Source: an uncultured delta proteobacterium
GTDB lineage: Bacteria > Desulfobacterota > Desulfobacteria > Desulfobacterales > SG8-13
Length of the DNA stretch: 22,868 nucleotides
Reading direction: 5' to 3'
Assembly: GCA_963848135.1 (NCBI GenBank)
Contig: CAWKCK010000005.1
Span: 682,001 to 704,868, forward strand
In this document: in pieces, positions 1 to 21,324 of the stretch
Numbering within the stretch: the stretch's first letter is position 1
Layout of the letters: each line of letters starts with the position of its first letter
Program-made: the position numbers and the translations under genes
The notes under the pieces: generated by a model
Seen by the model: the letters and a program-made list of their open reading frames with translations, nothing else
Database searches by the model: none
What the model was told of the DNA's origin: nothing

Positions 1-972
1 CAGGCGCTGCTCATTGCGGGTAAAAGCGCGATGCACCAAAAAGAGTATGATGAAAGCCGCCGATTATTGGAGACGGTCATCCGTTTGGCGCCGGACAGCC
101 CGGAGGGGTATTACCAGATGGGTCGGCTGAGCCTCACCGAAAACGATCAGGATACCGCCATCGAATACTTTCATAAAGCTCTCGACCGCGACCCTAAACA
201 CATGGAAGCATTCACCAATCTGGTCCTTGCCTACATGCGCAAGAAGGACATGTCCGCCGCAATTCGTGCCTGTGACACGCAACTGCTCAAAGTCAACGAA
301 AACCCAAGGTCACAGGCTGTCATCCAAAACGTGAAGGGCGTCCTTTTCCTCGAACAGAAGAACCAGACAAAGGCTGTAAACCAGTTCAAAGAAGCACTGT
401 TGACCGATCCGAATTACCTTCCTCCCTATTACGCCCTGGCTCAGCTTTATTTATCAGAAAATCGAGCGGAGCAGGCCATCGAGCAGTTCCAAAATGCCCT
501 CGCAAAAAATCCGAATCAAACCGCAGCGCATATGTTCTTGGGAATGATATATGATTCGATGAAAGATTCTGCATTAGCGGAAAAGAACTATCGCGCCGCT
601 CTCGATCTCAATCCAGATTTCGCACCCGCAGCCAACAACCTTGCTTATCTTTTAGCAGACCAAGATCGTGAGCTGAACGAGGCTTTGAAATTAGCCAACA
701 TAGCCAAAAAGTCAAATCCTGACGAGCCGAGTATCGCAGACACTCTGGGTTGGGTCTATTACAAGAGAGGGCTCTATGCGAATGCTGTGAGTGAACTCAC
801 CGCTGTCGTTGAAAAACTGCCTGACAATGCAACAGTGAGATATCATCTGGGGATGAGTTATCTCAATAATGGAGAAAAGGAAAAAGCCAAGCTGGAACTG
901 GAAAAGGCCCTCAGTCTGGATGAGTCATTTAACGGATCCAAAGAAGCTGAGAAGGCGCTGGCAGGATTGTAA
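1..972 (+). CDS. TPR-repeat protein, 5'-partial; resembles PEP-CTERM-system TPR proteins (PrsT-like)
   Basis: Frame is open from base 1. Consecutive TPR units, with C-terminal 'NNLAYLLA...PSIADTLGWVYYKRG...VRYHLG' pattern. Adjacent to a PEP-CTERM gene. Confidence 0.85.
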   Translation, partial: QALLIAGKSAMHQKEYDESRRLLETVIRLAPDSPEGYYQMGRLSLTENDQDTAIEYFHKALDRDPKHMEAFTNLVLAYMRKKDMSAAIRACDTQLLKVNENPRSQAVIQNVKGVLFLEQKNQTKAVNQFKEALLTDPNYLPPYYALAQLYLSENRAEQAIEQFQNALAKNPNQTAAHMFLGMIYDSMKDSALAEKNYRAALDLNPDFAPAANNLAYLLADQDRELNEALKLANIAKKSNPDEPSIADTLGWVYYKRGLYANAVSELTAVVEKLPDNATVRYHLGMSYLNNGEKEKAKLELEKALSLDESFNGSKEAEKALAGL

Positions 973-1795: not shown

Positions 1796-2494
1796 ATGAG
1801 GATGGCTCCTATGGTAAAGGGAAAAAAAATAATGTTCTGCTGTGCTGTTTCACTCCTTTTAATCATTTCTGCTATTCCTTCAGGATTGTGGGCATACCCA
1901 CTCAAGGTAGGTGATGTCATTTCTTTATCAGATGGACCGGGGACGACTAATGGTGGTGAGTTCAAAGTCAATTTGGTAAGCCCCACCAGTGCCTCTGATA
2001 TTTTTAGGACGTTTTGCTTGGAAAAGAATGAATATTTTAGTTGGAACCAGCCCTTAACAATTCAGGGTATTTCCGATTATGCAACTGCAGGCGGTGTAAG
2101 CGGCGGTGGGTCAGATAATAAAGATTTCTTGTCTAATGAAACCAGATACCTTTATTATCATTTCTATGTTGGAGATCTTATTGGTTATAATTATTCAGTT
2201 CCAACAGAAAGAGCAAAAAGTGCTAATGCATTGCAAGAGGCAATTTGGATGCTCGAAGGTGAGATGAACATTGTCTCAACTAACTACTTTATAGATTATT
2301 TAGAAAAATCAGTAGTAAGCACTTCAGGATGGACTGCCGGTATAGATAGCGTTAAGGTGCTAAATTTGTATAAAGCTGACGGATCTAAGGCTCAGGACCA
2401 GTTGACCGTAGTTCCTGAACCAGGAACGCTTTTAAGTTTAGGGATCGTCCTATTGGGACTGGGCGGTATTACACGCCGTAGATTTAAAAATTAG
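1796..2494 (+). CDS. PEP-CTERM sorting-domain surface protein
   Basis: N-terminal signal peptide. 'TFCLE' and 'ALQEAIW' motifs. C-terminal VPEP-hydrophobic-RRRFKN. Exact start among 1796/1802/1811 uncertain. Confidence 0.93.
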   Translation: MRMAPMVKGKKIMFCCAVSLLLIISAIPSGLWAYPLKVGDVISLSDGPGTTNGGEFKVNLVSPTSASDIFRTFCLEKNEYFSWNQPLTIQGISDYATAGGVSGGGSDNKDFLSNETRYLYYHFYVGDLIGYNYSVPTERAKSANALQEAIWMLEGEMNIVSTNYFIDYLEKSVVSTSGWTAGIDSVKVLNLYKADGSKAQDQLTVVPEPGTLLSLGIVLLGLGGITRRRFKN

Positions 2495-2534
2495 CGTTTC
2501 GTCATAATATCACATTTAGTATTACACCAAAAAT

Positions 2535-2572
2535 AAAAGCGGGGCTTTTTAAGACCCCGCTTTTGTTTTTTA
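2535..2572. terminator. Bidirectional intrinsic terminator
   Basis: AAAAGCGGGG...CCCCGCTTTT stem followed by a T tract, between convergent genes. Confidence 0.85.
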
Positions 2573-2610
2573 ACTACTCTATTTTCATTTTTGGTCAGTT
2601 CAAATTTTTG

Positions 2611-2755
2611 TTCTTCTCCGATTTATTTCGTGTAAATTGATGTGAAGCTCATGCATGGATCATAGCGTAGTTAAATTGGCCGCCCGCTCACTCCGCTCGC
2701 TCGACAGACGCCGACGGACGCAGACTTTTTGCCTCCGCGACCTGCGGAGGCAAAA
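2611..2755. repeat. Direct-repeat copy of 1018-1162 (truncated MITE/palindrome copy)
   Basis: ~145-bp high-identity match, including ATGGATCATAGCGTAGTTAAATTGGCCGCCCGCTCAC and the GCCTCCGC hairpin. Confidence 0.9.
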
Positions 2756-2759
2756 GAAC

Positions 2760-3158
2760 CTATTTTATTAACTCGAAAAGTTCAAACTTAGAAGCCTTTT
2801 TGTCAAATGTGAGGACACTTTCACAGCCGGATATCTTTGCAGCACAGGCAATTAAAACATCTGAAAGATCGATTTTATTTTCTCGGGCTAAAAAAATAAA
2901 CCGTTGTATGGTCGGTTGAGCTTCAAATTTTAGAATAGGCATCAATAAGATCTCATTTATGGCGTCCAGAATTTCTTCTCTTGGTATTTCATAAACTGAG
3001 TCAAGCACCCATATTGTTTCTAAGACTACGAGCAGTGAAACACAAAAAATTTCCTTGTCAGCTTCCGCTTGTTTGAAAACCCTGTAAACTATTTTGGATT
3101 GATGCTCATCGTCTTTAACCAAAAAACGTACCAAAACATTCGTATCTAAGGCTTTCAT
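2760..3158 (-). CDS. vapC: PIN-domain VapC toxin
   Basis: N-terminal 'ALDTNVLVR', 'SDVLI', 'LTFDKK'. Overlaps the upstream AbrB gene. Confidence 0.92.
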   Translation of the reverse strand: MKALDTNVLVRFLVKDDEHQSKIVYRVFKQAEADKEIFCVSLLVVLETIWVLDSVYEIPREEILDAINEILLMPILKFEAQPTIQRFIFLARENKIDLSDVLIACAAKISGCESVLTFDKKASKFELFELIK

Positions 3159-3403
3159 TAAAATTTGTCCTTTATTTTCTGCCTTATCCTGCTATTCATC
3201 TCTTCGACTGAGATGGCCTTTCGGTCATGTTTATGTAACAACCCGAAAACGTCATCGACTTTTTTGGACACTGGCCTGATAAGCGCTTCCCTTTTATCAA
3301 TGACAACAAATTCTATCTTATCACCCGCGCTCAGCATCAGGGAATCCCGAATAGCTTTTGGAATCGTGACCTGACCCTTGGTGGTTATGGTTGCCGATGC
3401 CAT
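3158..3403 (-). CDS. AbrB/MazE/SpoVT antitoxin
   Basis: 'ATITTKGQVTIPKAIRDSL...GDKIEF'. AGGAGG RBS at 3411-3416 (minus). Confidence 0.92.
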   Translation of the reverse strand: MASATITTKGQVTIPKAIRDSLMLSAGDKIEFVVIDKREALIRPVSKKVDDVFGLLHKHDRKAISVEEMNSRIRQKIKDKF

Positions 3404-3430
3404 AATACAACCTCCTTACTAAATTTAAAA

Positions 3431-3468
3431 CCTTACTTTAGAGTAAGGCAAACAAACTGGCCTGTCAA
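3431..3468 (-). promoter_or_regulatory. Sigma70 promoter and operator of abrB-vapC
   Basis: Minus-strand TTGACA-17-TACTCT. Palindrome CCTTACT-TTAG-AGTAAGG (3431-3448) overlaps the -10. Confidence 0.7.
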
Positions 3469-3544
3469 TTACGATTTGGTGAAGGTATTCCTTCCAACTT
3501 TCAGCTGTCATTTTTAGCCTTTATTTTCCTTGAGCTTTTGAACT

Positions 3545-3651
3545 TTTCCCTCTCGACCCCTCGGCCCCCTTAATCCCGATTCCCGTATCCCGCAACTCGC
3601 AACCCGCAACTCGCAACCCGCAACCCGCAACCCGCAACCCGAAACCCGTAA
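3545..3651 (+). repeat. Spacer block with heptamer tandem array (CCCGCAA)n
   Basis: 11 degenerate 7-mers at 3575-3651. Segment 3545-3604 recurs at ~7269-7328. Confidence 0.9.
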
Positions 3652-3668
3652 CCCTCTAAGCGATCCCA

Positions 3669-4019
3669 TTATCGAAAGGCGTCTTCATTTATCTCGAAAA
3701 CCTTTGCTAATTTATCTCGGGTTTCTTTTCGATAAACAGCGCCATTTTTTTCCCATTTGGCTATGGACGATTGTTTCACGCCGAGGCGCTTCGCTAAATC
3801 TTTTTGCGTCCAGCCGCGTTCAATACGTTCCCTTTTAACCGGGTTCATAAAAATATAATTTTCTGCCTCTTTTTGATTATAGAGCGGTTCACTTTTCGCC
3901 TCACGGATGGCGCGCAGATCGGAATCATCCTCAAGGCAGTCCAACATTTTTTCAAAAAGATCAACCGGCAGAACCACAAATTTTACTTTGCCTTTTTCTT
4001 TTATTGTTTGAAATTCCAT
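3669..4019 (-). CDS. Xre-HTH antitoxin (HigA-like) with N-terminal interaction region
   Basis: 'RIERGWTQKDLAKRLGVKQSSIAKWE' HTH, directly downstream of a RelE gene. Confidence 0.85.
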   Translation of the reverse strand: MEFQTIKEKGKVKFVVLPVDLFEKMLDCLEDDSDLRAIREAKSEPLYNQKEAENYIFMNPVKRERIERGWTQKDLAKRLGVKQSSIAKWEKNGAVYRKETRDKLAKVFEINEDAFR

Positions 4020-4021
4020 CT

Positions 4022-4282
4022 CTACCTCTTATAGATGTCTCCTCGCGTTCGTATTTTGACCACTTCAATGGTGAGCTGATCACGATGCCGCGTATATATA
4101 ATTCTGTAAGGCCCGATTCTGAGGCGATATCCCGCTTCGCCCTTTAGTCTATCAACGTCTATATTTGTACCGTCGGGATCTTTCTGGAGTTCATGCAATT
4201 TGTCTATAATTCTCGATTTTATTTTAAGCGGAAGCCTTGCCAGGTAGTTTCTGGCCTGTCGCCTGTATATTAATCGATACAT
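4022..4282 (-). CDS. relE: RelE/ParE-family toxin
   Basis: 'YRLRIGPYRIIY...RTRGDIYK'. Confidence 0.9.
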   Translation of the reverse strand: MYRLIYRRQARNYLARLPLKIKSRIIDKLHELQKDPDGTNIDVDRLKGEAGYRLRIGPYRIIYTRHRDQLTIEVVKIRTRGDIYKR

Positions 4283-4316
4283 AGCTTTATTATACCTTTT
4301 AAAGCTATATTGTCAA
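4281..4316 (-). promoter_or_regulatory. Consensus sigma70 promoter giving a probable leaderless mRNA, with operator
   Basis: TTGACA-16-TATAAT-6 nt-ATG. Inverted repeat ATAGCTTTA (4281-89)/TAAAGCTAT (4300-08). Confidence 0.8.
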
Positions 4317-4474
4317 GCCAATAATTGTGTTATTTCGACCCAATGAAACCCGTTTTAGAGGATTATACATTAATGACCTTGAGCTGCTTTTTTCCGAAAT
4401 GCCGCTTGCAACCAAAAACAAAAAAGGCATTGAAAGATTTCCCGTTTCAATGCCGTCTGCGCCTGTTTTCTCTG

Positions 4475-4632
4475 GTAAAGCCCAGCGCCGCAGGCCAATT
4501 GGTTTTAATCGAGCGTCGTCTCCCGCTCGATTAAAAAAAACCCCCTCTGTGTTCTCTGCGTCTCGAACGAGCAACGCGAGTGGGCGGTGAAAATATTTTT
4601 GAGTGATTTATTGGGTACTTCTCGAGCAAAGC
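4475..4632 (+). repeat. Repeat family A copy 1
   Basis: AGCGCCGCAGGCCRATTGG + 13-bp hairpin (4503-15/4524-36) + CTCTGYGTTCTCTGCGTCTCGAACGAGC..GAGTGGGCGGTGA. Near-identical to 6534-6693. Confidence 0.92.
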
Positions 4633-4769
4633 GGGCGGCGATTAAGCCGATATCTGCAACCATTACCCCGTTCCGTATTAATTCCTTGAGCGTTTTACCC
4701 CGAGCTTTCACTTTCGCTCTTCGTAATATTCACATTGAACCTTCAATTTCAGGCTTTCAGCCGTTCACC

Positions 4770-4825
4770 TTGACACCGAAAAATGTGAGGCATACGATGA
4801 ATCAAAATGAATCAAGAGGTGAATC
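4770..4825 (+). promoter_or_regulatory. Sigma70 promoter with TGAATCA direct-repeat operator
   Basis: TTGACA-17-TACGAT at 4770-4798. Three TGAATCA units before/at the start. GAGGTG RBS. Confidence 0.7.
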
Positions 4826-5074
4826 ATGTCTCAAATCACTTTACGAGGGCTGGATCCGAAGATCGAACACGATTTACGCCGGATTGCCCAAAAAACAGGG
4901 AAATCACTTAACCGCATCGTTCTGGAAATGATCAATAAATCGGCAGGATACGATAAGAAACCGCCGGCCGCCTCACTGCGCAAACTCGCCGGGGGTTGGA
5001 CTGAAAACGAGGCTTCTGAATTTACCGAGTCGATTAAAATCTGCGAGCAGATAGATGAGGATGTGTGGCGATGA
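4826..5074 (+). CDS. RHH/Arc (FitA-like) antitoxin
   Basis: 'MSQITLRGLD...AQKTGKSLNRIV', C-terminal 'LAGGW...IDEDVW'. ATGA overlap with a PIN stub. Confidence 0.8.
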   Translation: MSQITLRGLDPKIEHDLRRIAQKTGKSLNRIVLEMINKSAGYDKKPPAASLRKLAGGWTENEASEFTESIKICEQIDEDVWR

Positions 5075-5109
5075 AAATACTGTTGGATACAAGCGCATAT
5101 CGCCTCTAA
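5071..5109 (+). pseudogene. Truncated VapC/PIN toxin (first 10 codons only)
   Basis: MKILLDTSAY, then runs into repeat C at 5098 and stops. Confidence 0.8.
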
Positions 5110-5217
5110 CTCCCAACGAATTTCTATTGCTTTCAGCTTATTAATCCTTTAATTCCATAATCCCTCAATTCCTGAATTTTCTTTTATCCCTTTCAGATCT
5201 TTCCCCTCGACCCCTTG
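5098..5217 (+). repeat. Repeat C copy 1 (contains AATYCCNN 8-mer array)
   Basis: ~120-bp near-identical match to 7167-7287. Confidence 0.92.
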
Positions 5218-5347
5218 AACCTCTGCACTCACACGGTATTAATAAAAGGTTCTTCTCCCGATTAGTGGGAGTATAACCATAAAATAATTTTCGTACCCAA
5301 AATCCCGGTCCTGTAAAACGGCGAAATATTCTCGAATGTGAATAGGA

Positions 5348-5797
5348 TTACTTGGGGGGATGACTTTTCTGAATGGATTGAGCTTTCAAGAGATTGATGA
5401 TAGCAATTTTATAGTCTTCAAAATCATTGAGATCATATTTTAATATGCCGACGACTATTTCGGCGTCCACTTGATCATAGTGGTGAACGACAATGTTTCT
5501 AAATTTTGCCATTTTTTCAAGTGCGGGAAACAGGTTATTTCCTATAATATTATTTTCATGGAGGACTTTGAATGCATCGGCATAACTCTTTGGTATTCGG
5601 TAACCCCTGTCTGCAATAATGTGCCCCGAGATATCTACACACGTTTCAATCATCATCTGCAGGGTTCTTTCGATAATGCGTTGAACCTTCCAATCGCCCG
5701 AATACTTAGCAACCGAAATATTTTCATATTCCTTGATCTGCTGATAGTATTCGTCTAATTCAGACAGCTTGCGGAGAATCAATGCCTCATCAACCAT
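5348..5797 (-). CDS. hepT: HEPN (DUF86/HepT-like) RNase toxin
   Basis: RNIVVH (R-X4-H) followed by HY. Likely start ATG 5797 with AGGAG RBS, overlapping the MNT gene end. Confidence 0.9.
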   Translation of the reverse strand: MVDEALILRKLSELDEYYQQIKEYENISVAKYSGDWKVQRIIERTLQMMIETCVDISGHIIADRGYRIPKSYADAFKVLHENNIIGNNLFPALEKMAKFRNIVVHHYDQVDAEIVVGILKYDLNDFEDYKIAIINLLKAQSIQKSHPPK

Positions 5798-6212
5798 GCA
5801 GATATCTCCTCTTGAGTTGCGCTGACTCTTTAACGGAAAAATCAAAATATTTTCTCATCACCAGAGATTCGAATCGGTGTCGCGTGAACGGTTCCTTATC
5901 GACAATCACTTTTTTGTTTTTCAGAACATTCATGACCAGGGGCAGGTCGGCTTTATTTAGAACAACTAAGTCAATTTCATCGGTTTGAAGGATATTAATA
6001 AGTCCTCCCAACAATTCGAACTTGCATTCGGCCAGATTCGCAGCCTCCTTCAAAAACACGGCGATGTCCACGTCACTCAAGGGCAATGGATCTCCCTTTG
6101 CCAAACTGCCGAAAAGATATGCAAAAAGGACATTTCCGTGTGAGCGCAGATAATCCTCGGCTGCAGGTAGGAGTCTCATGATGTTTTCTGGTAGTTTTGT
6201 AAATTTGATCAT
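5790..6212 (-). CDS. mntA: Minimal nucleotidyltransferase antitoxin (MntA-like)
   Basis: 'YLFGS...SDVDIA...IDLVVL'. Upstream TTGACA-17-TATTTT on minus at 6267-6239. Confidence 0.9.
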   Translation of the reverse strand: MIKFTKLPENIMRLLPAAEDYLRSHGNVLFAYLFGSLAKGDPLPLSDVDIAVFLKEAANLAECKFELLGGLINILQTDEIDLVVLNKADLPLVMNVLKNKKVIVDKEPFTRHRFESLVMRKYFDFSVKESAQLKRRYLHG

Positions 6213-6299
6213 CTGTTTTAACCACTTTTTATTGTGAAAAAATATCCGATAAATTTAGAAATGTCAAACCACACAGCTGTCTTGTGAAGCGGCATGGAC

Positions 6300-6447
6300 T
6301 CCTCATAAATTCTGCCTGCCTTGCCTGCCGCGCCTGCCCTGCCCCGTAGCTCCGGCAGATGGTACTGGGGTTAAATTCTGCTATGCAGACACCGATAGGT
6401 GATTTAACTGGGGCGCCTCGAACGAGCCAAGCGAGTGGGCGGTGAAT
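6300..6447. repeat. Nested short palindromes ending in a family A tail
   Basis: CCTGC repeats, CCCCGTAG...TACTGGGG, GTTAAAT...ATTTAAC, then GCGCCTCGAACGAGCCAAGCGAGTGGGCGGTGA. Confidence 0.65.
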
Positions 6448-6533
6448 AACTTTGGCCCTTAGTTCTCTTTTCTACTGTAACCATATCACTCGTATTAGCC
6501 CCAACGGTTGATAATCAATACCATTCGTAAAAT

Positions 6534-6772
6534 GTAAAGCCCAGCGCCGCAGGCCGATTGGTTTTAATCGAGCGTCGTCTCCCGCTCGATTAAAAAATAA
6601 AACCTTTCTGTATTCTCTGCGTCTCGAACGAGCAACGAGAGTGGGCGGTAAATAAATTTTTGTATGATTTATTGGGTACTTCTCGAGCGAAGCCCCGCAG
6701 ATAGCGGGGCAGGCTGGGCGGTGAAATTCTTTGTTTTGATTGACCGAGCCAAGCGAGTGGGCGGTGAAATTC
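6534..6772 (+). repeat. Repeat family A copy 2 plus two extra GGGCGGTGAAATTC tails
   Basis: 6534-6693 matches 4475-4632. Extra GCCCCGC/GCGGGGC hairpin at 6692-6710. Confidence 0.9.
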
Positions 6773-6835
6773 TCCCTTCCCTTCAAGTATTGAGTTATTC
6801 TCATAGTTGGGAAAAGATATCATTAAATATCCAGG

Positions 6836-7048
6836 CTAACCTGCTGCGCACAGGGCTTCAGCTTTATCCTCCAACGCTTTGACTAAATCCTCAATGGCAA
6901 TTACTTCTTTTTCCTCGAAATAGGCTTCTCCACACTGGCCACACACCCATGCCGGTACCTTATCCAGTGTAACGTGACAATCCTTACGATCAATGTGGAA
7001 TGGGATTGTGCCTGGTTTCATCTCTCCACCGCAATGAATGCATTTCAT
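6836..7048 (-). CDS. YgiT-type zinc finger (MqsA-like antitoxin domain)
   Basis: 'MKCIHCGG...VPAWVCGQCGEAYF'. Confidence 0.9.
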   Translation of the reverse strand: MKCIHCGGEMKPGTIPFHIDRKDCHVTLDKVPAWVCGQCGEAYFEEKEVIAIEDLVKALEDKAEALCAAG

Positions 7049-7131
7049 GGCTTAATCCTTTTTCTAAAATCCTCCGACCATTCTTCTGAGTCGGGAAGGT
7101 AGGCGGTTATGACAGCTAGGAAATCGTCTTC
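7045..7131 (-). pseudogene. 3' remnant of a DUF4258 toxin gene
   Basis: Minus frame reads DDFLAVITAYLPDSEEWSEDFRK, a DUF4258-like C-terminus upstream of YgiT. The 5' part is replaced by repeat. Confidence 0.75.
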
Positions 7132-7401
7132 ACCTTTAACCTTTGAGCTATTATTGGCCTCCAACCTATCGCCTCTAACTCCCAACGAATTTCTATTGCT
7201 TTCAGCTTACCAATCCTTTAATTCCACAATCCCTCAATTCCTGAATTTTCTTTTATCCCTTTCAGTTCTTTCCCTCTCGACCCCTTGGTCCCCTTAATCC
7301 CGATTCCCGTAACCCGCAACACGCACCCCGTTTCTCGTAACCCGCATCCCGCAACCTTTACCCCGCCTGCCCCGTGAGACCTGCTATCCATTGAACCTGG
7401 G
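7129..7401 (+). repeat. Composite spacer: repeat D head + repeat C copy 2 + heptamer array + CCCCGTG palindrome
   Basis: TTCACCTTTAACCTTTGAGCT from 7129. 7167-7287 matches 5098-5217. Eight 7-mers at 7299-7354. Confidence 0.88.
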
Positions 7402-7618
7402 TAGTTCTGACAGATGTTCAGGTTCTGATTGCACATTTAAGTTCGAACCATTTCCCTCTAATCTCTTAACACGAGAGTATTACCGAAAGTGAGCGGTTCA
7501 AATTTTAAAATCAAATTTTCCAGATAAATATACTTGACACCGACATGCAAAAGCGGTAATAATTTTTACCAGTTTTTAGATATAGTGGCAACAATTTTTA
7601 CCGGATGCGTGAGAACCC

Positions 7619-8923
7619 ATGCTGGACATGATCAAGGAAATTATCCTGGATTTTCAAAATGAAGTGCGCGACACCGGTGTAAAGCGCCACTTAGACTACG
7701 AACGTGTTGAGAAAAAAGCCTTTGTTTGCATCGGTGTGAGGCGTGCGGGCAAATCCACGCTGCTTTACCAGATAATTTCAGACCTTAACCTCAAAAACGT
7801 TAAAAAAGAAAATATTTTATACATCAATTTTTTCGACGACCGCTTGAACGAGGTTAAGCGCGTCAATTTATCTCTGGTCACAGAGGCTTATTTTTCGATC
7901 TTTCCCGAAAAAAAGGGATCTGAAACCGTTTATTGTTTTTTTGATGAAATCCAGGAAGCCGCTAACTGGGAGGCATTTGTCGACAGAATCTTGAGAACGG
8001 AAAAATGCGAGGTCTTCCTCACCGGCTCATCATCCAAAATGCTTTCAAAAGAGCTGTCAACGCAAATGCGCGGCCGGTCTATTTCCTGGGAGCTCTTCCC
8101 CTTCTCTTTCAAGGAGTTCTGCGATTACAAGGGAGCGGATTATAAAAAACTGACCTCAAAAAACCGGCTCATTCTGAGAAACTGCTTTGACGAATATTTT
8201 AAGAAAGGAGGATTCCCCGAAGTCAGAAACGCTTCCGAAAAGCTGCGGATCAAAATCCATCAGGAATATTATAAAGCCATCATGCACAGAGATGTTATTG
8301 AAAGGTTCGATGCACTACATCCGCAAGTCGTGATGCAGGCAGGTTACCGCATGATCGAGTCGTCCGGATCTCTCTATTCGATAAACAGAATTACTTCTTA
8401 CCTGAAGTCAATTGGCTACAAAGTAAGCAAGGGATTTGTTTCTTCTTGCATCGAATGGTTCGAAGATGTGTATTTCCTCTTTTCAGTGAAATTGTTCAGT
8501 CAGTCGGTGTCCATACAGAATGCCAATCCTAAAAAGGTATACTGCATTGATCATTCCCTGATCACCTCAATAGTGCCGACCATTTCTGAAAACACCGGAC
8601 ACATGCTTGAAAATATGATCTACATGCATTTAAGGCGTCAAACAAACGATATTTTTTACTATCGAACGAGTAAGGGCAAGGAAATCGATTTTCTGTGGCT
8701 TGACGCAACTGGCGAACGACACCTTGTCCAGGTTTGCACAACCCTTTCCGATCCTTCTACCCGGAAACGTGAAATTTCATCGCTAATCCAGGGGATGAAA
8801 GAAAACGGTATTCAAAAAGCAACAATCATCAATTTAAACGACGAAGATACCATCCTCGAAGATCAATACACCATCCGCGTCCTCCCGGCCTGGAAATTCC
8901 TGATTCAAACTCTTCCCGAATAA
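7619..8923 (+). CDS. AAA+ ATPase with DUF4143 domain
   Basis: Walker A GVRRAGKST, Walker B FFDEIQ, 'LTGSSS', 'GGFPE', C-terminal 'EIDF...VQV'. TTGACA at 7534. Confidence 0.9.
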   Translation: MLDMIKEIILDFQNEVRDTGVKRHLDYERVEKKAFVCIGVRRAGKSTLLYQIISDLNLKNVKKENILYINFFDDRLNEVKRVNLSLVTEAYFSIFPEKKGSETVYCFFDEIQEAANWEAFVDRILRTEKCEVFLTGSSSKMLSKELSTQMRGRSISWELFPFSFKEFCDYKGADYKKLTSKNRLILRNCFDEYFKKGGFPEVRNASEKLRIKIHQEYYKAIMHRDVIERFDALHPQVVMQAGYRMIESSGSLYSINRITSYLKSIGYKVSKGFVSSCIEWFEDVYFLFSVKLFSQSVSIQNANPKKVYCIDHSLITSIVPTISENTGHMLENMIYMHLRRQTNDIFYYRTSKGKEIDFLWLDATGERHLVQVCTTLSDPSTRKREISSLIQGMKENGIQKATIINLNDEDTILEDQYTIRVLPAWKFLIQTLPE

Positions 8924-9054
8924 TTGCTGAATTCCAGTAGCGTGTAACTCGCAACCCATGCTTTCCGGCTCAATTTATCCCGTGAAATTCATGTAAGTGA
9001 AAAGCCTGCTCATCGGCGCGGCGCTTATTTAACGGATCGGACTCAACGGGCTAA

Positions 9055-9204
9055 CCCGGAAATTTCATGAAATCATTTCAGCTCTTTCATTGGATCTTGG
9101 CGAGGGACAAAGTGTGCCCCGATTAAACGGATCATGAGTTTGATCAATGCCCCGATATGGGTTCTATTGGCCGCTCGGTGAAATGATTTCATGAAATATT
9201 CGGG
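9055..9204. mobile_element. 150-bp MITE with 26-bp TIRs and CTAA duplication
   Basis: CCCGGAAATTTCATGAAATCATTTCA vs reverse complement CCCGAATATTTCATGAAATCATTTCA (24/26). CTAA at 9051-54 and 9205-08. Confidence 0.8.
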
Positions 9205-9229
9205 CTAATCTGGTCAAACTGAATTCCCT

Positions 9230-9409
9230 TTCACCTTTAACCTTTGAGCTTTCAGCTGGCGCGAAGCGCCTTACCCGCAACCTTTACCCCGTTGAATTTC
9301 CCGAAGGGAAGATGCGCAGCATCATTCAACCGGGGCGAGATTCACAGCACCAAAATCTAAATACCAAATACCAAATACCAAACATTACACACCCTGCCCT
9401 CACATAGTA
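9230..9409 (+). repeat. Repeat D copy 1 with an internal palindromic insert
   Basis: 50 bp identical to 10185-10234. Insert CCCCGTTGAAT...ATTCAACCGGGG. AATACCA heptamers. Shared CCCTCACATAGTA end. Confidence 0.9.
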
Positions 9410-9575
9410 CTAATAAAATAATATACGTCCCCGAAATACCTAAAAAAATATATGCCCCTAAATTTCACGCCGTCCCTACACGCGTCCGTTTATTGTTTAG
9501 GCAATTATGGACGGCTCAATAAACATTCCCACTTTCTTGTTGCAAATTTGTATTAAATAAGTATTATATTTACAC

Positions 9576-9842
9576 ATGGATTTCGAATGGAATGAACAAA
9601 AAAGCATGTCAAACAGTGCCAAGCATGGTATCGATTTTGAAGCTGCAACCCAATTGTGGAATGATGGAGACAGGGTTGAGGTTCATACAACATTTCCTGA
9701 TGAAAGTCGAAGTATCATGATCGGAAGAATCGACAAGAAATTGTGGTCTGCGGTTTTTACGCAACGCGGAGAATCAATACGCATTATTTCCGTTAGGCGT
9801 GCCAGGAAAAAGGAGGCTGTACTTTATGAGAAAGAAAAATAA
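9576..9842 (+). CDS. brnT: BrnT-family toxin
   Basis: 'MDFEWNEQK...KHGIDFE...IRIISVRRA'. Confidence 0.92.
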   Translation: MDFEWNEQKSMSNSAKHGIDFEAATQLWNDGDRVEVHTTFPDESRSIMIGRIDKKLWSAVFTQRGESIRIISVRRARKKEAVLYEKEK

Positions 9843-10092
9843 AGCTAAATCCGCGGAAGAGTTTGACAGGCGTTTTAATGAAGGCGAGGATATTCACAAC
9901 CTTATTCAAATTTCGGAAGCAAAAATCGTCCGTCATGGGAAGAAAGTGCGTGTCACGCTGGATATCGCAGAGGGATTATTACAAGAAATTGATCGCATAC
10001 GAAATAAGATTGGCGTGGATCGAGCGGCATTGATAAAAATATGGCTGCATGAGCGAGTCCAAAAGGAAAAATCTATATCATTCGATTCGTAG
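9826..10092 (+). CDS. BrnA-like CopG/RHH antitoxin
   Basis: Likely start ATG 9826 after AGGAGG. 'AEEFDRRF..GEDI...RVTLD...GVDRAALIKIWL'. Confidence 0.85.
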   Translation: MRKKNKAKSAEEFDRRFNEGEDIHNLIQISEAKIVRHGKKVRVTLDIAEGLLQEIDRIRNKIGVDRAALIKIWLHERVQKEKSISFDS

Positions 10093-10184
10093 ACTTACAT
10101 TGGCCCCTGAGATTTACGCTTTCAGCACAAATTTCTCTTGAGCAGCTATGCTGTGTTTTATAAATTTTTCAACTGAAAAATCTA

Positions 10185-10292
10185 TTCACCTTTAACCTTT
10201 GAGCTTTCAGCTGGCGCGAAGCGCCTTACCCGCAGCACCAATCACCAAACACCAAACACTACATCCACTTGAACCCTTTCCCTCACATAGTA
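10185..10292 (+). repeat. Repeat D copy 2
   Basis: Matches 9230-9409 without the insert. Confidence 0.9.
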
Positions 10293-10365
10293 TTCGTTCC
10301 TTAAATTCTTGGGCGCAATCTAAGGTATTGAAACCACATCTATTAAAATAGAAAGAATTTTCGTC

Positions 10366-10400
10366 TTGACAACTATCACGTGACAGTTTACATTTGGGTC
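10366..10400 (+). promoter_or_regulatory. higBA promoter/operator (probable leaderless)
   Basis: TTGACA-17-TACATT-6 nt-GTG. Palindrome AACTATCACGTGACAGTT at 10371-10388. Confidence 0.8.
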
Positions 10401-10682
10401 GTGATAAAGACATTTACCAATAAAGAAACTCAACAGGTTTTCATTAAAGGCAAATCAAAACGTTTTCCGCCTGATTTGATCCAAAGGGCGATACGTCGAT
10501 TGGAATATATTCATTGGTCAACATGCTTGAACGATCTGAGCGTACCTCCAAGCAATCGATTACATGCCCTCAAAGGTGACAGAGAGGGGCAATATTCCAT
10601 ATCAATCAACGATCAATGGCGCATTTGTTTCCGGTTCATCGATGGCGACGCCTATGACGTAGAAATTACAGATTATCATTAA
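10401..10682 (+). CDS. higB: HigB toxin (RelE/ParE family)
   Basis: Start revised to GTG 10401 (MIKTF). 'PPSNRLHALKGDREGQYSISINDQWRICFRF...DYH'. Confidence 0.93.
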   Translation: MIKTFTNKETQQVFIKGKSKRFPPDLIQRAIRRLEYIHWSTCLNDLSVPPSNRLHALKGDREGQYSISINDQWRICFRFIDGDAYDVEITDYH

Positions 10683-10693
10683 GGAGAAACATA

Positions 10694-11008
10694 ATGGCGA
10701 TACCGAATGCCGCAAAACGAGAAATTCCTCCGACACACCCAGGTGAAGTTTTAAGGGAAGATTTCATTCCGGATTACGGTTTGACTACGGCATCTCTGGC
10801 TGATGCTTTGGGAGTATCCCGCCAAACAATCAATGAAATCCTTAGGGAAAGAAGAGCCATCACCCCTATTATGGCATTACGACTATCCCGGTTGTTTGGT
10901 AATACCCCTGAGTTTTGGCTCAACGCACAAAATGCTCGCGACATTTGGGATTCTGAGCAACATTTTAAAGATGCTCTTGAACAAATTCATCCACTAAATG
11001 CTGCATAG
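10694..11008 (+). CDS. higA: HigA antitoxin
   Basis: 'PTHPGEVLREDF...GVSRQTINE...MALRLSRLFGNTPEFWLNAQ'. Confidence 0.94.
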   Translation: MAIPNAAKREIPPTHPGEVLREDFIPDYGLTTASLADALGVSRQTINEILRERRAITPIMALRLSRLFGNTPEFWLNAQNARDIWDSEQHFKDALEQIHPLNAA

Positions 11009-11140
11009 CAAGCGCCGCATGCCGATTGGTTTTCATATGCCGTCCACTCAGCGGCAAATGAAAAAAACTTCTAACCTCTGCGTTCTCTGCGCCTGGTTTA
11101 TTGTAGTCAAGAACTTAAAATAGTTTTTGCTTATAATGAG

Positions 11141-11286
11141 GTCACCATTTCCAACCCTGGTATTTGAGAGTCCGCCAACGGCTCTGATCTTGCTTCATCG
11201 GGAATTGGTGACAGCGGGGAGTTTTGAATGCTCGAGCTGAAGGTCGAAAAAATCGCCTTAATGGCGCAGATGAAAATCTCCCCGCT
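11141..11286 (-). ncRNA. Predicted bridge/seek RNA: target-binding loop 11286-11213, donor-binding loop 11212-11141
   Basis: Two adjacent stem-internal loop-stem units. Loops carry TCTGCGCC/TCGAG (target) and AGCAAG/ACCAG (donor junction). Confidence 0.8.
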
Positions 11287-11292
11287 TTCACA

Positions 11293-12546
11293 TCAAGCTG
11301 CTAGTTGACAACGATGGGTATTGTAATCTTCGATATATATCGAGCCATCACGGGCCAATGCAAACATCACCGCCAGCAGTTTGCGCGAAATCGCCACCAG
11401 AGCTTTGATTTTGGGCATTCCACGCTCAATCATTCGGTTGTAAGGCACATGCATAATCCCATTGGACTTAACGGTATTGATGGCGCCAAAATACAACAGT
11501 TTGCGCATCAACGGTCGTCCGCGTTTGGAAATGTGGTGTCGCCCGCGGTGCTTGCCGGAACTGACCTCAAACAAATCCAGACCAGCCAGTTTGGTGATCT
11601 CAGGGAGCGTGGAAAATTGACGAAAGTCTCCCACCTCACCGATCAAGCCGGCAACGGTGATCAGGCCGATACCTCGCATCGAAAGAAGATACGGACTGTA
11701 TGGGATTTGCTCCAAATAGCTTCTCATGCGGCCTTCCAGGTGATCGACAAACGCATTGATCCTTTCGATCTGATCCACAAGGTAGCCAATCTCCGAGACA
11801 ATGCTCTGGCGGCCTTCGGTGACTCCGACCGAGGATTTTGCCGCCTGAAACAGCTGCCTGGCCCGTTGATGGTCCATCCTGCCACGGCTCACACGCCTCA
11901 TGTCCCGGCTCAACTGCTCCAGGCCCAGAGTCAACACGGCGCCCGGCGCAGGGCAATGCCTGATCAGATACAAGCCGGTTTTACAAGAAACGGTTTTGAT
12001 CACCTTCAAAAACTCTGGGAAAACGACAAACACAAGATGCTGCAACTGATTGAGTATGGCCGTGCGTTCTTTGATGGCGCGCTCTCTGGCCTGGGTCAGC
12101 CGCCGCAGCTCGGCCGCCGCTCCTTCCGGAACCACCACCGTCAAAGAATGACCGAGCATCATCACATCGGCAATGACTCGCGGGTCTTTACGATCGGTCT
12201 TGTTCGGAGAATTACCGGTAAGTTCCTTCACACGCTTACTGTGCATCGGGTTGATTTGCACCAGCTGCACCGGCTTCTGCCTCAAAAAGTGCAGCAGCGG
12301 CTCGGCGTAAGGCCCTGTGGACTCAAAGCCAACCAGAACCTGACTCAAGCGATGGGCTTTTTTAAACCGACACAGCTTCTTCCAAAATTGGTCAAAACCG
12401 TACCGGCAATTGGTAACTTCAAAAGGTTTTTCTTCTTTCCCATTGGGGGCACGGAAATATCCAAAATGAGACCCTTTACCGATATCCAGACTAACGATCA
12501 TTGTTTGCCTATTGACCCTTTTAACTTTTTGCGATTTAGTATTCAT
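11293..12546 (-). CDS. IS110-family DEDD recombinase/transposase
   Basis: SLDIGK, GFESTG, KTDRKD (DEDD) and C-terminal SSGK serine. Likely start ATG 12546 after AGAGGAG. Confidence 0.95.
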   Translation of the reverse strand: MNTKSQKVKRVNRQTMIVSLDIGKGSHFGYFRAPNGKEEKPFEVTNCRYGFDQFWKKLCRFKKAHRLSQVLVGFESTGPYAEPLLHFLRQKPVQLVQINPMHSKRVKELTGNSPNKTDRKDPRVIADVMMLGHSLTVVVPEGAAAELRRLTQARERAIKERTAILNQLQHLVFVVFPEFLKVIKTVSCKTGLYLIRHCPAPGAVLTLGLEQLSRDMRRVSRGRMDHQRARQLFQAAKSSVGVTEGRQSIVSEIGYLVDQIERINAFVDHLEGRMRSYLEQIPYSPYLLSMRGIGLITVAGLIGEVGDFRQFSTLPEITKLAGLDLFEVSSGKHRGRHHISKRGRPLMRKLLYFGAINTVKSNGIMHVPYNRMIERGMPKIKALVAISRKLLAVMFALARDGSIYIEDYNTHRCQLAA

Positions 12547-12913
12547 GGCTATGCTCCTCTTTTGATCCCAGATTACCAACCAACTTGCATGTAACTGGCA
12601 TCAAAATGAGTATAGCCTTTTTTGTTCATGCTCAAGGCTTACTGGAATATAGCAAGCTCTAACGAGCACCGCGAGTGGGCGGTGATAAAATCCTGCTCCT
12701 TCATATATAGATCCTGTCTGAATTAGGTCCCACAGGTTGACTTATTGTTTAGGAAGCAATCCGGAAAGACCTACCACCTGTTTTGCCTCTTCTGAAGGAT
12801 CTCCTCAATTCATCCGATTCACGATGATCATTTTTTGTTGCTAATCGTTATTTACTGCTGTGCGAGAACACCCTTAGAATATCCTGTACAGCCTATAGAC
12901 CCTTTCTAAGTTG

Positions 12914-13020
12914 AGCGCCGCAGGCCGATTGGTTTTATTTACCGCCCTATCTCAACGGCAAATAAAATAAATAAACTCAAACTCTGCGTTCTCTGTGACT
13001 CGAACGAAGCGAGGCGGTGA
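12914..13020 (+). repeat. Repeat family A copy 4
   Basis: AGCGCCGCAGGCCGATTGG + hairpin 12933-44/12956-67 + CTCTGCGTTCTCTGTGACTCGAACGAAGCGAGGCGGTGA. Confidence 0.88.
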
Positions 13021-13028
13021 ATAATCTT

Positions 13029-14030
13029 TTATGCTTCTATCGTAGTTTTTTCAGTTAGTAGCACCTTCTTCGACTCATCGTTTGTTATCGCCTTCTTTTT
13101 CTCCGATCGCCACAACAGCCACAAAATCGGCGCCCACAACAACAGCGCGATAAAGAAAAAAGGCTTCCCCCCTGCCCTGTGAAGCCAGCTATCAGTCAAC
13201 CATGAAGGATCGACATACGAAGCCATTAAAGTAAGTGCCGTAATGCGCAGCGCATTTTTAAAGATCGTTATCGGAATGATTGCAAGCACTGCCATAAGTC
13301 GGCGCCAGCCGGTTTCCAGAAATACATACCCGGCAGCTGTGGTCGCAACAATCAGCGACAGACTGGATCTGATACCGCTGCATTGCTCTGCGACCTGGAT
13401 TGATACCTCAGGCAATTCGAACACCGTATCGGTGCGCAAGTAAGTCAACCCGATGAGTCCGAAAACACCGTCCACCGTATGAGCCGTCATTTGCTGTAAA
13501 AACCGGATAGTTCGATCCAGAACAACTGTCGGGACCGGGATTGCAAAAAATAGAAAAAGTAGGGGAAACATTGCCCTTCGAAAGGCCCGCTTACCATATA
13601 ATCCGACAAACCCACCAATGATCCAGAGAACGAAGCCGATGATGCACAAGGTTAGATAGTCGTTCTGTTCAACTTCTAACTGAAAAACATTGACAGCAAA
13701 TCGCAGTATCAGGCCTGCAAGAACCACGGTAGCGCCGACCGCTGGCGCATATGCGACTTGCCGGAAAAAGTCTTTGCGTTTTAGGCCAACGATAGCGAAG
13801 CTAAACAGTGGGATTAGAGCAATATGTGAATAAAGCGAATCGTTGTGAGAAAGGACTGCCAGATGGTATAGCGGTGTCCAGAAAATAGCGATTCCGACGG
13901 CGCAGAAAACCGCAAATAGAATGCTGCGATGAATAAAAAAATTATTTGAGTTTGCTGGATTTATTGGGTTGATAGGGTTTGTTGGGTTTGTTAAATTCGC
14001 TTCGTTGTTTTTCGTAAATTCACTGGCTAA
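13029..14030 (-). CDS. Exosortase (EpsH/Xrt family); 5' end uncertain, possibly disrupted
   Basis: AEQCSGIRS (Cys), NALRI (Arg), WLH (His). Frame open upstream to 14030 with the YSHIALIP motif, but no ATG/GTG/TTG before 13727. Confidence 0.85.
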   Translation of the reverse strand, partial: LASEFTKNNEANLTNPTNPINPINPANSNNFFIHRSILFAVFCAVGIAIFWTPLYHLAVLSHNDSLYSHIALIPLFSFAIVGLKRKDFFRQVAYAPAVGATVVLAGLILRFAVNVFQLEVEQNDYLTLCIIGFVLWIIGGFVGLYGKRAFRRAMFPLLFLFFAIPVPTVVLDRTIRFLQQMTAHTVDGVFGLIGLTYLRTDTVFELPEVSIQVAEQCSGIRSSLSLIVATTAAGYVFLETGWRRLMAVLAIIPITIFKNALRITALTLMASYVDPSWLTDSWLHRAGGKPFFFIALLLWAPILWLLWRSEKKKAITNDESKKVLLTEKTTIEA

Positions 14031-14035
14031 TTAAT

Positions 14036-14550
14036 AAAACTACCCGCCGCAAGCGGACAGGGTATTAGAATAGTGACAACTGTCGGTCTTCGTACAACCG
14101 ATGATAGTTTGCTCCTTGATTTTTTACATTACTGCCCTATTGAATCCTCATTGCCAGGCTTACCAACGCTACTCGCAAAATATCCATCCGGCCAGAACTC
14201 TCCTGCCCACAGCTGCTTCTTAACCTGCGGGCAGCGCCTGAATATTTCTCTGGCACTAAAACTTTTCCTTATTGTTACGATTTTAGTGACACTGTATGTC
14301 GGAACTGACTGAACCAAAAAATGGACATTGTCCTTATCTGTGCCGATTTCTAAAAACTTTTTCTGATATCCCTTTTCGATCTTCAGCATATGTATTTATA
14401 ACTTCATCTACGTGTTTATCTATGACCACAAGCTTATATTTGGCTGGAAATACTAAATAATATATCAGGACGGTTACTTTATGGCTCTTATGTAGGTATT
14501 CGCTCCCACAGCGATTCTACGTCGCAAGCGGCGTGGAATACAACCCTGAA
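14036..14550 (-). mobile_element. Degenerate IS200-type element
   Basis: CGCAAGCG hairpins at both ends (14047-56, 14519-34) bracket a tnpA remnant. Boundaries approximate. Confidence 0.75.
14100..14509 (-). pseudogene. tnpA: IS200/IS605 Y1 transposase pseudogene
   Basis: SEYLHKSHKVTVLIYYLVFPAKY, then a frameshift near 14390. HUH reads NVH. Stop/frameshift at the expected catalytic Tyr (Y-V-K-N-Q). Confidence 0.85.
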
Positions 14551-14588: not shown

Positions 14589-15656
14589 TCAGGGCAGCAG
14601 GAATAACCCGTTTTTTTCCGCGTACTTCTTACCTATGAAACAGCCTTTTGGGATCAACGCGTGAACACCTTTGGTGTAGTCCACCAATTGCGTTATACAG
14701 AGATCCACTGCTTGGCTGCAGAACGCGTATGCTTCAGACCTAGGTAAGTCGTAGTATTGATTTAAAAAGGTAATGCTTTTGCGTACAGCCATTTTGGCTG
14801 CGCTTTCAAGATCCGTATGAAATCCCATGATAACCCAGTTTATAGGAGTAGATGCCATAGGCCAGTTTACGATTTCACCGAGATCCTTGCGTATGGTGAG
14901 ACGAAGAGAAATACACTTGAACGCCCCTTCGACCGCGTTGAGGTTCACTTCACCGTTGCCCTGGGCTAAATGACCGTCGCCGGTTTTTAGGCCAACGCCC
15001 GGCGCGTGCACCGGGAGATAAAGCACGGAGCCCGGAACAAGTTCTTTGTTATCCATGTTACCGCCGTGTTTTCCTGGGGGCACGTTGCTCCATCTGCCTG
15101 GATCTGCCAGTTCTACGCCAATGGTACCTGGAAAAGGCTTTGCTTGCACGGTAATTCCAGGCATGAATTCGTACGTACCGTTTTCCTTGTCCAGTGTATA
15201 CCAACGCATGCCGCCATTTGGAAAATCTTCTGGCAAGAAACCAAGCTTCAGGAAAGAGGTTTGCGGGTTGAGGTTAAATCCCTGCGGGTAGGGATCTATA
15301 TATAGGATTTCCACTTCGAGTACGTCACCACACTCAGCTCCTTGCACGTGTATAGGCCCGGTGAGGTGATGATGTCCCGCTCCTTTTCTTAATTTTTCAG
15401 CGCCGGTATCAGAATCAGGGAATATATAAACTTCAGGGTCATTCTGCATAACATTTCGGTAAGAATCGGCCCACTGGTTCAAGTTGGTACCTGGTTCCAT
15501 TAGTAAGTGAAGACCGGTTTCGATTTCAACGATATCTCCTGAGGCCACAGTGAGTACTGGCTTGCGGGTGTTGTCCCAGTATCCGTTTGTTGCAGTTAAT
15601 TCGTTGCATTTGAGAACGTGCACGTTTTCCTCAGGCCCATAGGGTTTTAATTCCAT
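14589..15656 (-). CDS. Acetamidase/formamidase family protein
   Basis: 'HHLTGPIHVQGA..GDVLEV', 'PFPG', 'HGGNMD', 'GDGHLAQGNGEV...AVE'. Confidence 0.9.
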   Translation of the reverse strand: MELKPYGPEENVHVLKCNELTATNGYWDNTRKPVLTVASGDIVEIETGLHLLMEPGTNLNQWADSYRNVMQNDPEVYIFPDSDTGAEKLRKGAGHHHLTGPIHVQGAECGDVLEVEILYIDPYPQGFNLNPQTSFLKLGFLPEDFPNGGMRWYTLDKENGTYEFMPGITVQAKPFPGTIGVELADPGRWSNVPPGKHGGNMDNKELVPGSVLYLPVHAPGVGLKTGDGHLAQGNGEVNLNAVEGAFKCISLRLTIRKDLGEIVNWPMASTPINWVIMGFHTDLESAAKMAVRKSITFLNQYYDLPRSEAYAFCSQAVDLCITQLVDYTKGVHALIPKGCFIGKKYAEKNGLFLLP

Positions 15657-15691
15657 ATTTTTTAAGTAAGCTCCTATTTATAGTCCTCGTT

Positions 15692-16582: not shown

Positions 16583-16759
16583 TTCTTACTCCTTAATTTC
16601 CATGATTATCAAAGACTTTTTACACTGAATGACTTCGTTTTGACCCCCTGTCTACAAAGTTGGTGATAGCTAAATACTCATACAGTGATAGTGCGTATTT
16701 CCTAAACTCCAAGATTCATTAATTATTCTTGTATCGGGTGATCAATATGAGCGATGATC

Positions 16760-19117: not shown

Positions 19118-19265
19118 TTCTCCGGCTCCAAACTTCCGTGTAATCGAAAACAATTGACCAATTTGTTTTCAACAAGTTGTATTGATTACTAAACATACCT
19201 ATGGTTAACCATTTTTTTGTGTAGGAGGAAAAACAATTTGTTCCGTATATCGATTGATTACGTCA

Positions 19266-21308: not shown

Positions 21309-21324
21309 TATTCACCAGTATGGT

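Follow-up and report, generated by a model that had tools for sequence, protein, structure and literature searches.

The window analysed here is a stretch of 22,868 nucleotides (nt) from the genome of an uncultured delta proteobacterium (GenBank assembly GCA_963848135.1; 6.03 Mb, 50% GC), of which it forms the last 22.9 kb of contig C5. Its central feature is a block of small genes and repeats of ~10.5 kb (2495-13028, an IS110-family element included) that lies between a PEP-CTERM protein gene and an exosortase gene. When the gene families of the window were called by Pfam and NCBIfam profile searches, five adjacent toxin and antitoxin pairs of matching families were recognized by Pfam, with HepT, MntA, BrnA and HigA also above the NCBIfam cut-offs, and by their gene families the five pairs are assigned to type II or type VII toxin-antitoxin (TA) modules. 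The same searches confirmed the remainder of the gene list in the initial annotation of this DNA, namely two lone antitoxin-type genes and one AAA-DUF4143 gene. The module genes are in mixed orientation (7 on the minus and 6 on the plus strand). The initial annotation had closed the block at 11008, which is too early, as the block extends from ~2600 to 13028. It had also stated that no responsible enzyme is visible; an IS110 transposase gene (11293-12579) lies just past that end, inside a repeat, and a Y1 transposase fragment lies at 14129-14389, neither of which is shown to move modules. In the window, no integrase, relaxase, replication or conjugation gene was found by Pfam and no tRNA was found, and a whole-window Rfam scan gave four matches (E 0.06-0.88), all far below the gathering scores.

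The original state of the gap can be seen in relatives. Using the exosortase protein, metagenome contigs were scanned and seven relatives were found at 72-78% identity, three of which (L073, L075 and L077) reach the next gene. In these three, the gap between the PEP-CTERM and exosortase genes is only ~250-530 nt, compared with 10.5 kb here. In L073, a 528-nt gap separates the exosortase gene from the convergent PEP-CTERM gene, beyond which lies the TPR gene (72% amino acid identity). The gap of L075 (~250 nt) holds a hairpin-bearing repeat, termed the A-type element below, placed and oriented like the fourth A-type copy of the window. The gap of L077 (447 nt), beside a PEP-CTERM ortholog of 61% amino acid identity, holds a terminator-like hairpin as in window positions 2529-2570, a hairpin element and a piece resembling repeat D of the window. 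Of the other contigs, L076 continues for 560 nt beyond the exosortase gene, in which no window gene is matched, and the remaining three end too early to be informative. Because the gaps of the relatives are short and, in two of the three, repeat-bearing, the 10.5-kb block can be identified as an insertion into a convergent PEP-CTERM/exosortase gap that already held repeats. The A-type element found in the same place and relative orientation in L075 indicates that A-type copy 4 is probably ancestral to the gap. In another relative (L079), a frameshifted vapC with 86.5% nucleotide identity to the window vapC lies with a ParE/Phd pair on the opposite side of the exosortase gene. A short element located upstream of the exosortase gene in five metagenome relatives sits downstream of brnA here.

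Different genes occupy comparable places in other genomes. In the congener G001, the TPR ortholog (59% amino acid identity) is followed by HicAB, ParE, MNT/HepT, PIN, IVP and PDDEXK_3 genes among polysaccharide genes, and this locus shares no module with the window except a distant MNT/HepT at 31-32% amino acid identity. This other TA array, together with the short gaps in L073, L075 and L077, bears out the earlier proposal of a gene-accumulating hotspot in a PEP-CTERM/exosortase locus. The G001 array (L016, G001:C15:65000-83494) also contains a 1.16-kb duplication at 98% identity with the 23S-rRNA-IVP gene and its flanks, a 405-nt HicB duplication and ~250-nt tandem repeats at 971-2539. The second polysaccharide locus of the genome studied here (C4, ~197-245 kb) carries PemK, DUF2283, IS3 and Rhs genes, and the stretches adjoining it carry HicAB, PIN_3, further PemK and an IS110 copy; in G007 and G008, PemK, PIN, AbiEii and PDDEXK_3 genes lie beside polysaccharide genes. 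Homologs of the window modules were found scattered over 14 loci in 12 other genomes, with similarity confined to the genes. For example, the higB/higA homolog in G009 has 84% nucleotide identity, limited to 10366-11008. The DNA search of 40 relatives gave no synteny of the block and no relative in which two of these modules occur together, and the genome search with the PIN family gave four matches only. The 15 congeners searched are different species without this locus, and orthologs in the exosortase and TPR protein searches were obtained in only one or two of them; therefore, there is no within-genus empty site.

Modules in the block also appear to decay. The initial annotation counted two orphan antitoxins, and the RHH (ribbon-helix-helix) antitoxin gene indeed stands alone now. 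However, in G011 (L006) its homolog, an RHH antitoxin of 82 amino acids, is followed by an intact VapC of 131 amino acids, and in the window vapC consists of 12 codons followed by repeat C. The similarity of the two loci stops where repeat C begins, and from this comparison the "orphan" antitoxin can be recognized as what is left of a vapBC pair that eroded, with the cut lying at the repeat C edge. Smaller differences are found between close strains, whose metagenome contigs are short. The best sequencing run holds 0.25 of the sampled words, and most of the contig joints have sides of <40 nt and stem from repeats of other organisms, so that the strain comparison was restricted to X7 record 27 and the 9046/9201 joint. 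X7 record 27 (823 nt, with 2 + 18 = 20 differences) joins 7099 directly to 7467, so that the 367-nt repeat block 7100-7466 is absent in a near-identical strain. Contigs of X3 and X6 skip 9047-9200 and with it the ~140-nt MITE, with 8 nt fitting both sides and the intervening content flagged as not known. The earlier proposal that modules turn over via the repeats is thus borne out in part: breakpoints lie at repeat edges (vapC at repeat C, and the 367-nt block), but turnover of whole modules between close strains was not seen directly in these short contigs. In the X7 strain, only ~200 nt lie between the YgiT-type zinc-ribbon gene and its divergently oriented neighbour, the AAA_14-DUF4143 (PDC-S01) gene, and the two might be a functional pair.

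Repeated DNA is present in each of the 10 gaps from 2495 to 13028, as the initial annotation had noticed, although not as members of one repeat set. As shown by whole-genome searches, the gap repeats are mosaics of pieces from at least five unrelated families: the A-type hairpin element, two elements resembling miniature inverted-repeat transposable elements (MITEs), heptamer arrays and local duplicates. The four repeat pairs named earlier are real (89-100% identity); besides the repeat D pair at 9230/10185 (Table 1), they are 4475/6534 (160 nt, 91%), 5098/7167 (121 nt, 96%) and 3545/7269 (88 nt, 89%). The ~340-nt MITE-like repeat occurs at 20 further genome places at 82-93% identity plus one partial place, and also in the congeners G007 and G003; an 18-nt perfect inverted repeat (1006-1023/2754-2771) lies at the outer edges of its two copies flanking the PEP-CTERM gene. 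The ~140-nt MITE has ~25 near-full-length genome copies and is also found in G006 and G007. Heptamer arrays similar to those of the window (the arrays proper being at 3582-3654 and 7306-7365) are present at several loci of the genome and in many relatives up to the order level. Repeats C and D are local duplicates with weak partial matches only elsewhere in the genome. Repeat-covered DNA amounts to 1164 nt per 10 kb here, which is above the 95th percentile (848) and below the 99th (1397) of the genome, ranking ~19th among its non-overlapping 10-kb windows; dispersed repeats make up 18.5% of the intergenic DNA genome-wide, and 792 of 3496 gaps hold at least 50 nt. The region is therefore repeat-rich but not unique.

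Among the window modules, only brnTA has the same repeat on both sides, and two other brnTA loci have no bracketing repeats. A composite of repeat D and hairpins brackets brnTA in two species, here and in G003. The G003 repeats (G003:C17, L009, 3926-4047/4818-4970; 41 nt at 100% and 92 nt at 87%) are built of a C-rich array and hairpins and resemble the window composite.

Table 1 Predicted genes and repeats of the window (coordinates of the whole 22,868-nt stretch)
Feature	Position	Strand	Basis or remark
TPR-repeat gene, 3' part, left core flank	1-972	+	Pfam TPR families
MITE-like dispersed repeat, ~340 nt	1017-1355; second, partial copy 2610-2758		
PEP-CTERM protein gene, left edge of insertion gap	1796-2494	+	Pfam PF07589, NCBIfam TIGR02595
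vapC (PIN) with AbrB/MazE-type antitoxin	2760-3403	-	Pfam
C-rich leader and heptamer (CAACCCG-type) tandem array	3531-3655; second copy 7269-7365		
parE toxin with RelB-like/HTH antitoxin	3669-4282	-	Pfam PF05016, PF18506, PF01381
A-type copy 1	4477-4592	+	Model R1, 94.9 bits; duplicated unit 4475-4640
RHH (VapB-like) antitoxin (4826-5074) and 12-codon vapC remnant (5071-5109)	4826-5109	+	
Repeat C copy 1	5094-5220; copy 2 7163-7290		96% identity
HepT toxin with MntA antitoxin (type VII TA)	5348-6212	-	Pfam; NCBIfam NF047751, NF047752 above cut-off
A-type copy 2	6536-6653	+	R1, 91.9 bits; duplicated unit 6534-6700
YgiT/MqsA-type zinc-ribbon gene without HTH domain	6836-7048	-	NCBIfam TIGR03831 above cut-off; weak Pfam MqsA match
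Repeat-only block, 367 nt (D-like piece, C copy 2, leader, heptamers, hairpin)	7100-7466		
AAA_14-DUF4143 ATPase, candidate defence gene	7619-8923	+	Pfam; PADLOC PDC-S01, E 7.5e-102
MITE, ~140 nt	9052-9207		29-nt terminal inverted repeats at 90%
Repeat D copy 1	9230-9279; copy 2 10185-10234		50 nt, 100%; pair brackets brnTA
brnT toxin with brnA antitoxin	9576-10092	+	Pfam PF04365; NCBIfam NF047399 above cut-off
higB toxin with higA antitoxin	10380-11008	+	Pfam PF05015; NCBIfam TIGR02607 above cut-off
A-type copy 3, IS-split	11004-12692	+	Left ~11004-11094 (R1, 47.7 bits), right ~12657-12692
IS110-family insertion sequence (IS), ~1.56 kb; transposase gene 11293-12579	11093-12658	-	Pfam PF01548, PF02371
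A-type copy 4, directly after exosortase stop codon	12907-13022	+	R1, 87.3 bits
Exosortase gene, right core flank	13029-14030	-	Pfam PF09721; NCBIfam TIGR02602 above cut-off
IS200-type Y1 transposase fragment, N-terminally truncated	14129-14389	-	Pfam PF01797, profile positions 34-113 of 121

The A-type element is ~110 nt long and consists of four parts: a small GC hairpin; a long hairpin whose loop is conserved and whose stem varies; a direct motif of the CTCTGCG type; and a 3' motif of the GGCGGTGA type. Its structure was entered by hand for the covariance model, since the MAFFT alignment had placed the variable stems wrongly and RNAalifold therefore did not recover the main hairpin from it. 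Using this model, 36 copies were found in the genome at E<0.01, 4 in the window and 32 outside, and the window also holds two partial copies of the 3' module (6413-6453 and 6735-6775). At least six adjacent minus/plus (head-to-head) pairs occur among the 36 copies, all outside the window, and more are present in the loci L098-L102. A set of 64 distinct copies, drawn from this genome and four relatives, shows 96.6% pairing in the 12-bp stem and compensatory changes at every one of its 12 pairs, in an alignment that was fitted to the covariance model, which favours pairing; none of 500 shuffles reached this covariation, and slid controls were at most 55% paired. All 15 congeners contain the element, as do 9 of the 25 genomes searched from further away in the order; copy numbers reach 79, and no Rfam family matches it.

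The distribution of the A-type element does not follow TA genes. The initial annotation had proposed to test the repeats for a genome-wide association with TA genes. The neighbours of the A-type copies are mostly housekeeping genes, among them genes for Mla transport, rhamnose synthesis, flagella, type II secretion and sigma-54 regulators. Among the 83 open reading frames (ORFs) at the 32 outside copies, 4 are TA-type (HicB, HicA, PemK and PIN_3) and fall in 2 of 21 stretches; in the control, 1 of 103 ORFs beside 32 random intergenic gaps was TA-type. None of the 14 loci with window-module homologs in relatives has an A-type element next to the module, the nearest being 1.4-3.5 kb off. In G020, from a different family of the order, 13 A-type copies occupy the gaps of 15 kb of polysaccharide genes (G020:C7:192000-207176, L098), where the sole selfish-type gene is one PDDEXK_3 and there are no TA genes. 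An association with the REP-associated tyrosine transposase (RAYT; REP, repetitive extragenic palindromic) was also among the proposed tests and did not hold: of the four PF01797 (Y1) matches in the genome, three are fragments and none is flanked by A-type, the longer match at C18:468427 having no A-type copy nearby. Likewise, the 23 tyrosine-recombinase (PF00589) matches of the genome are all more than 19 kb from the nearest A-type copy. Thus, A-type is a general intergenic element that is not tied to TA genes, and it may represent either a mobile repeat of the REP kind or an element acting in cis within polysaccharide operons.

One A-type copy of the window is split by the IS110-family element, whose transposase, a recombinase with DEDD and Transposase_20 domains, scored 207.8 bits with NCBIfam NF033542 (cut-off 140). 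Two more copies of the element were found at 99% identity (G000:C17:791771-793381 and G000:C4:219977-221611). In all three copies the flanks are the two halves of an A-type element that are contiguous in uninterrupted copies, the insertion lies at the same position beside the stem-loop, and CT is found at both junctions. Because the flanks are A-type halves in every copy, the A-type element can be identified as the specific, fixed target of this IS110-family element. The 3' non-coding end of the element folds into a long closed stem. The best guide-like match between its ends and the target is 7 nt, equalled in 669 of 2000 shuffles and thus not significant. A comparable case is ISPpu10, an IS110-family element described as inserting into an intergenic repeat that bears a stem-loop (bioRxiv 10.64898/2026.03.19.712850), and IS621 provides a further IS110-family element for comparison (PMC11208160).

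The right flank of the block has features of its own. The exosortase frame is open for 333 codons and contains no ATG, GTG or TTG in its first 100 codons, and its 5' end abuts heptamer-like repeats and the Y1 fragment. In the relatives (73-78% amino acid identity), the exosortase genes are normal genes of 310-321 amino acids. The gene here may be disabled or may start at an unusual codon. Past the exosortase gene, 14589-22215 encodes a formamidase-family protein, two methyltransferases, an AMP-binding/carrier/hexapeptide-transferase fusion, a polysaccharide deacetylase and a PEP mutase, which suggests a phosphonate or acyl decoration of polysaccharide.

Considering these results together, we regard the locus as probably a chromosomal gene-turnover hotspot with TA accretion and erosion, which is a kind already known. 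The original convergent gap would have been a few hundred bases long with dispersed repeats already present, and the 10.5-kb block would have grown piecemeal by the addition of selfish TA modules, of a single candidate defence ATPase, of MITEs and of the IS110-family element. Acquisition presumably proceeded via homologous or illegitimate recombination, and the TA modules may have stayed because they are addictive, eroding later. The repeats would be independent small elements and not dedicated cassette sites: REP- and BIME-like (bacterial interspersed mosaic element) hairpins, the two MITE-like families and the heptamer arrays, which colonise permissive intergenic DNA genome-wide, especially in polysaccharide loci. 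Their role would be secondary, as portable homology and fragile points at which deletions, duplications and probably insertions end. The observations that carry this reading are the empty site, the different content of the congener, the eroded vapBC pair, the repeat insertions and deletions between strains, the spread of the repeats and the targeting by the IS110-family element. It is also in line with published work. Belot et al. (2026; PMC13617665) describe TA systems as clustered in high-turnover spots with frequent toxin pseudogenization, and Oliveira et al. (2017; PMC5635113) describe transferred genes as concentrated in ~1% of chromosomal regions, a picture that includes integrase-less hotspots. 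The acquisition of TA modules followed by toxin loss, as proposed here, would match this published picture of TA spots and integrase-less hotspots.

Several observations weigh against this reading. The GC content of the block is 39-47%, compared with 50% in the genome, which also fits an arrival en bloc from a plasmid or island. Repeats A and C follow each other in alternation, with nearly the same distance between copies (2059 and 2069 nt) although the DNA in between is unrelated, for which simple drift offers no explanation. The four A-type copies of the window point in the same direction, delimit units of ~2-4 kb and carry a 5' variant that is rare elsewhere, as a site-directed accretion would also predict. 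brnTA is bracketed by perfect direct repeats both here (50 nt) and in G003 (41 nt). Finally, the close-strain differences found in the metagenome contigs concern the repeat block and the MITE only, with no whole module among them.

A plasmid, an integrative element or another TA-rich island could have brought in the block whole or in a few large pieces, the remnant decaying in place since; its low GC content, the mobile-element debris at its right edge (the IS110 element and the Y1 fragment) and the one eroded TA pair would be accommodated by such an origin. However, no integrase, relaxase, replication or conjugation gene accompanies it in the window, 0 of the 40 relatives searched has two of these modules together, the vapC homolog of L079 sits on the opposite flank of the exosortase gene, and the empty site already includes A-type copy 4 and the D-like piece; we consider this origin unlikely. 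The initial annotation considered that the block may be an integron-like system, which the analysis does not support. Integrons, including sedentary chromosomal integrons, are characterized by IntI, attI and attC cassettes. Like them, the block holds small unrelated genes, often of TA type, between structured repeats, some of which are one-directional. Unlike them, it has no single family of border sites, its repeats are common beside housekeeping genes, its modules are in mixed orientation, and the window has no IntI-type tyrosine recombinase (no PF00589 match, the nearest on the contig being >630 kb away). In line with the earlier statement that neither integrase nor attC is present, no integrase was found, and a crude core-site and pairing scan of low power gave 0 attC-like candidates in the window and also 0 in 200 shuffles.

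Under this integron-like reading, the system would be an undescribed one in which a hairpin family, either A-type or the D/hairpin composite, serves as the site and an enzyme encoded elsewhere inserts and excises the modules. The four A-type copies in the same orientation that delimit units, the A-type stem kept by compensatory changes and the brnTA pair within identical repeats in two species speak for it. On the other hand, A-type elements adjoin none of the 14 homologous modules in relatives, are placed mostly at housekeeping genes, fill the TA-free G020 locus and are remote from every tyrosine-recombinase match; the same repeat on both sides is seen at brnTA only, module orientation is mixed, and what varies between strains is the repeat block 7100-7466 itself. 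Near Xer-like recombinase genes elsewhere in this genome, the searches showed only one heptamer array and chance MITE copies from the repeat families of the window, and no link between those genes and the window repeats was found. Such a system is very unlikely in our view. The odd features, that is, the direction and variant of the A-type copies, the A/C spacing, the brnTA repeats, the moved short element and the start of the exosortase gene, are the reason why a site-directed mechanism keeps a small probability, and there is likewise only a slight likelihood for the related idea that a recombinase whose gene lies elsewhere, which might be of the RNA-guided IS110 type or Xer-like, uses the hairpins of polysaccharide loci (A-type or the D/hairpin composite) as its sites. 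If it were true, PEP-CTERM/extracellular polysaccharide loci of the order would be integrase-less cassette platforms capturing TA and defence modules. The IS110-family enzyme itself, as an RNA-guided recombinase, might have built or reshuffled the block via the A-type elements that it targets. In the known IS110 reaction, an IS circle is joined to the target and not one target to another, the IS occupies only one of the four window A-type copies, and the guide-like match is not significant. The fixed position and CT junctions in three of three copies would agree with such a role, as would the remains of a different IS110-family gene, which lie 0.5 kb away from the A-type copy at C4:193513, and Na et al. 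(2026; bioRxiv 10.64898/2026.03.19.712850) link an IS110 element that targets stem-loop repeats to large segmental amplifications. Taken together, these points leave a construction by IS110 highly improbable.

Under the preferred reading of a turnover hotspot, an apparent "cassette array" can arise without cassette machinery, when TA modules and small repeats share one permissive gap of a polysaccharide locus. In addition, the well-supported, order-wide 110-nt hairpin element, without a match in Rfam and concentrated in polysaccharide loci, is possibly a useful side result. A natural IS110-family element with a hairpin element as its fixed target also fits the report that a target stem-loop adds insertion specificity.

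Compared with known systems, the parts of this locus have familiar counterparts. The IS110-family element resembles ISPpu10 in that it inserts at one fixed position next to a stem-loop. The A-type element resembles REP, BIME and REPIN sequences, being short, intergenic, present in tens of copies, often in head-to-head pairs and with a selected stem, whereas it differs from classical REPs in its greater length (four modules), in the lack of an associated RAYT-type Y1 transposase and in its concentration in polysaccharide loci. The block as a whole differs from TA spots in that whole-module turnover between close strains is not seen directly here, but it shares with hotspots of horizontal gene transfer and with TA spots the fixed core flanks, the variable content, the clustered TA modules, the orphan antitoxin and the absence of a dedicated integrase. 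What sets it apart from described hotspots is its place, since the gap lies between two convergent genes of a polysaccharide locus of the PEP-CTERM/exosortase kind in a sediment bacterium that is uncultured, and its unusually high content of small repeats.

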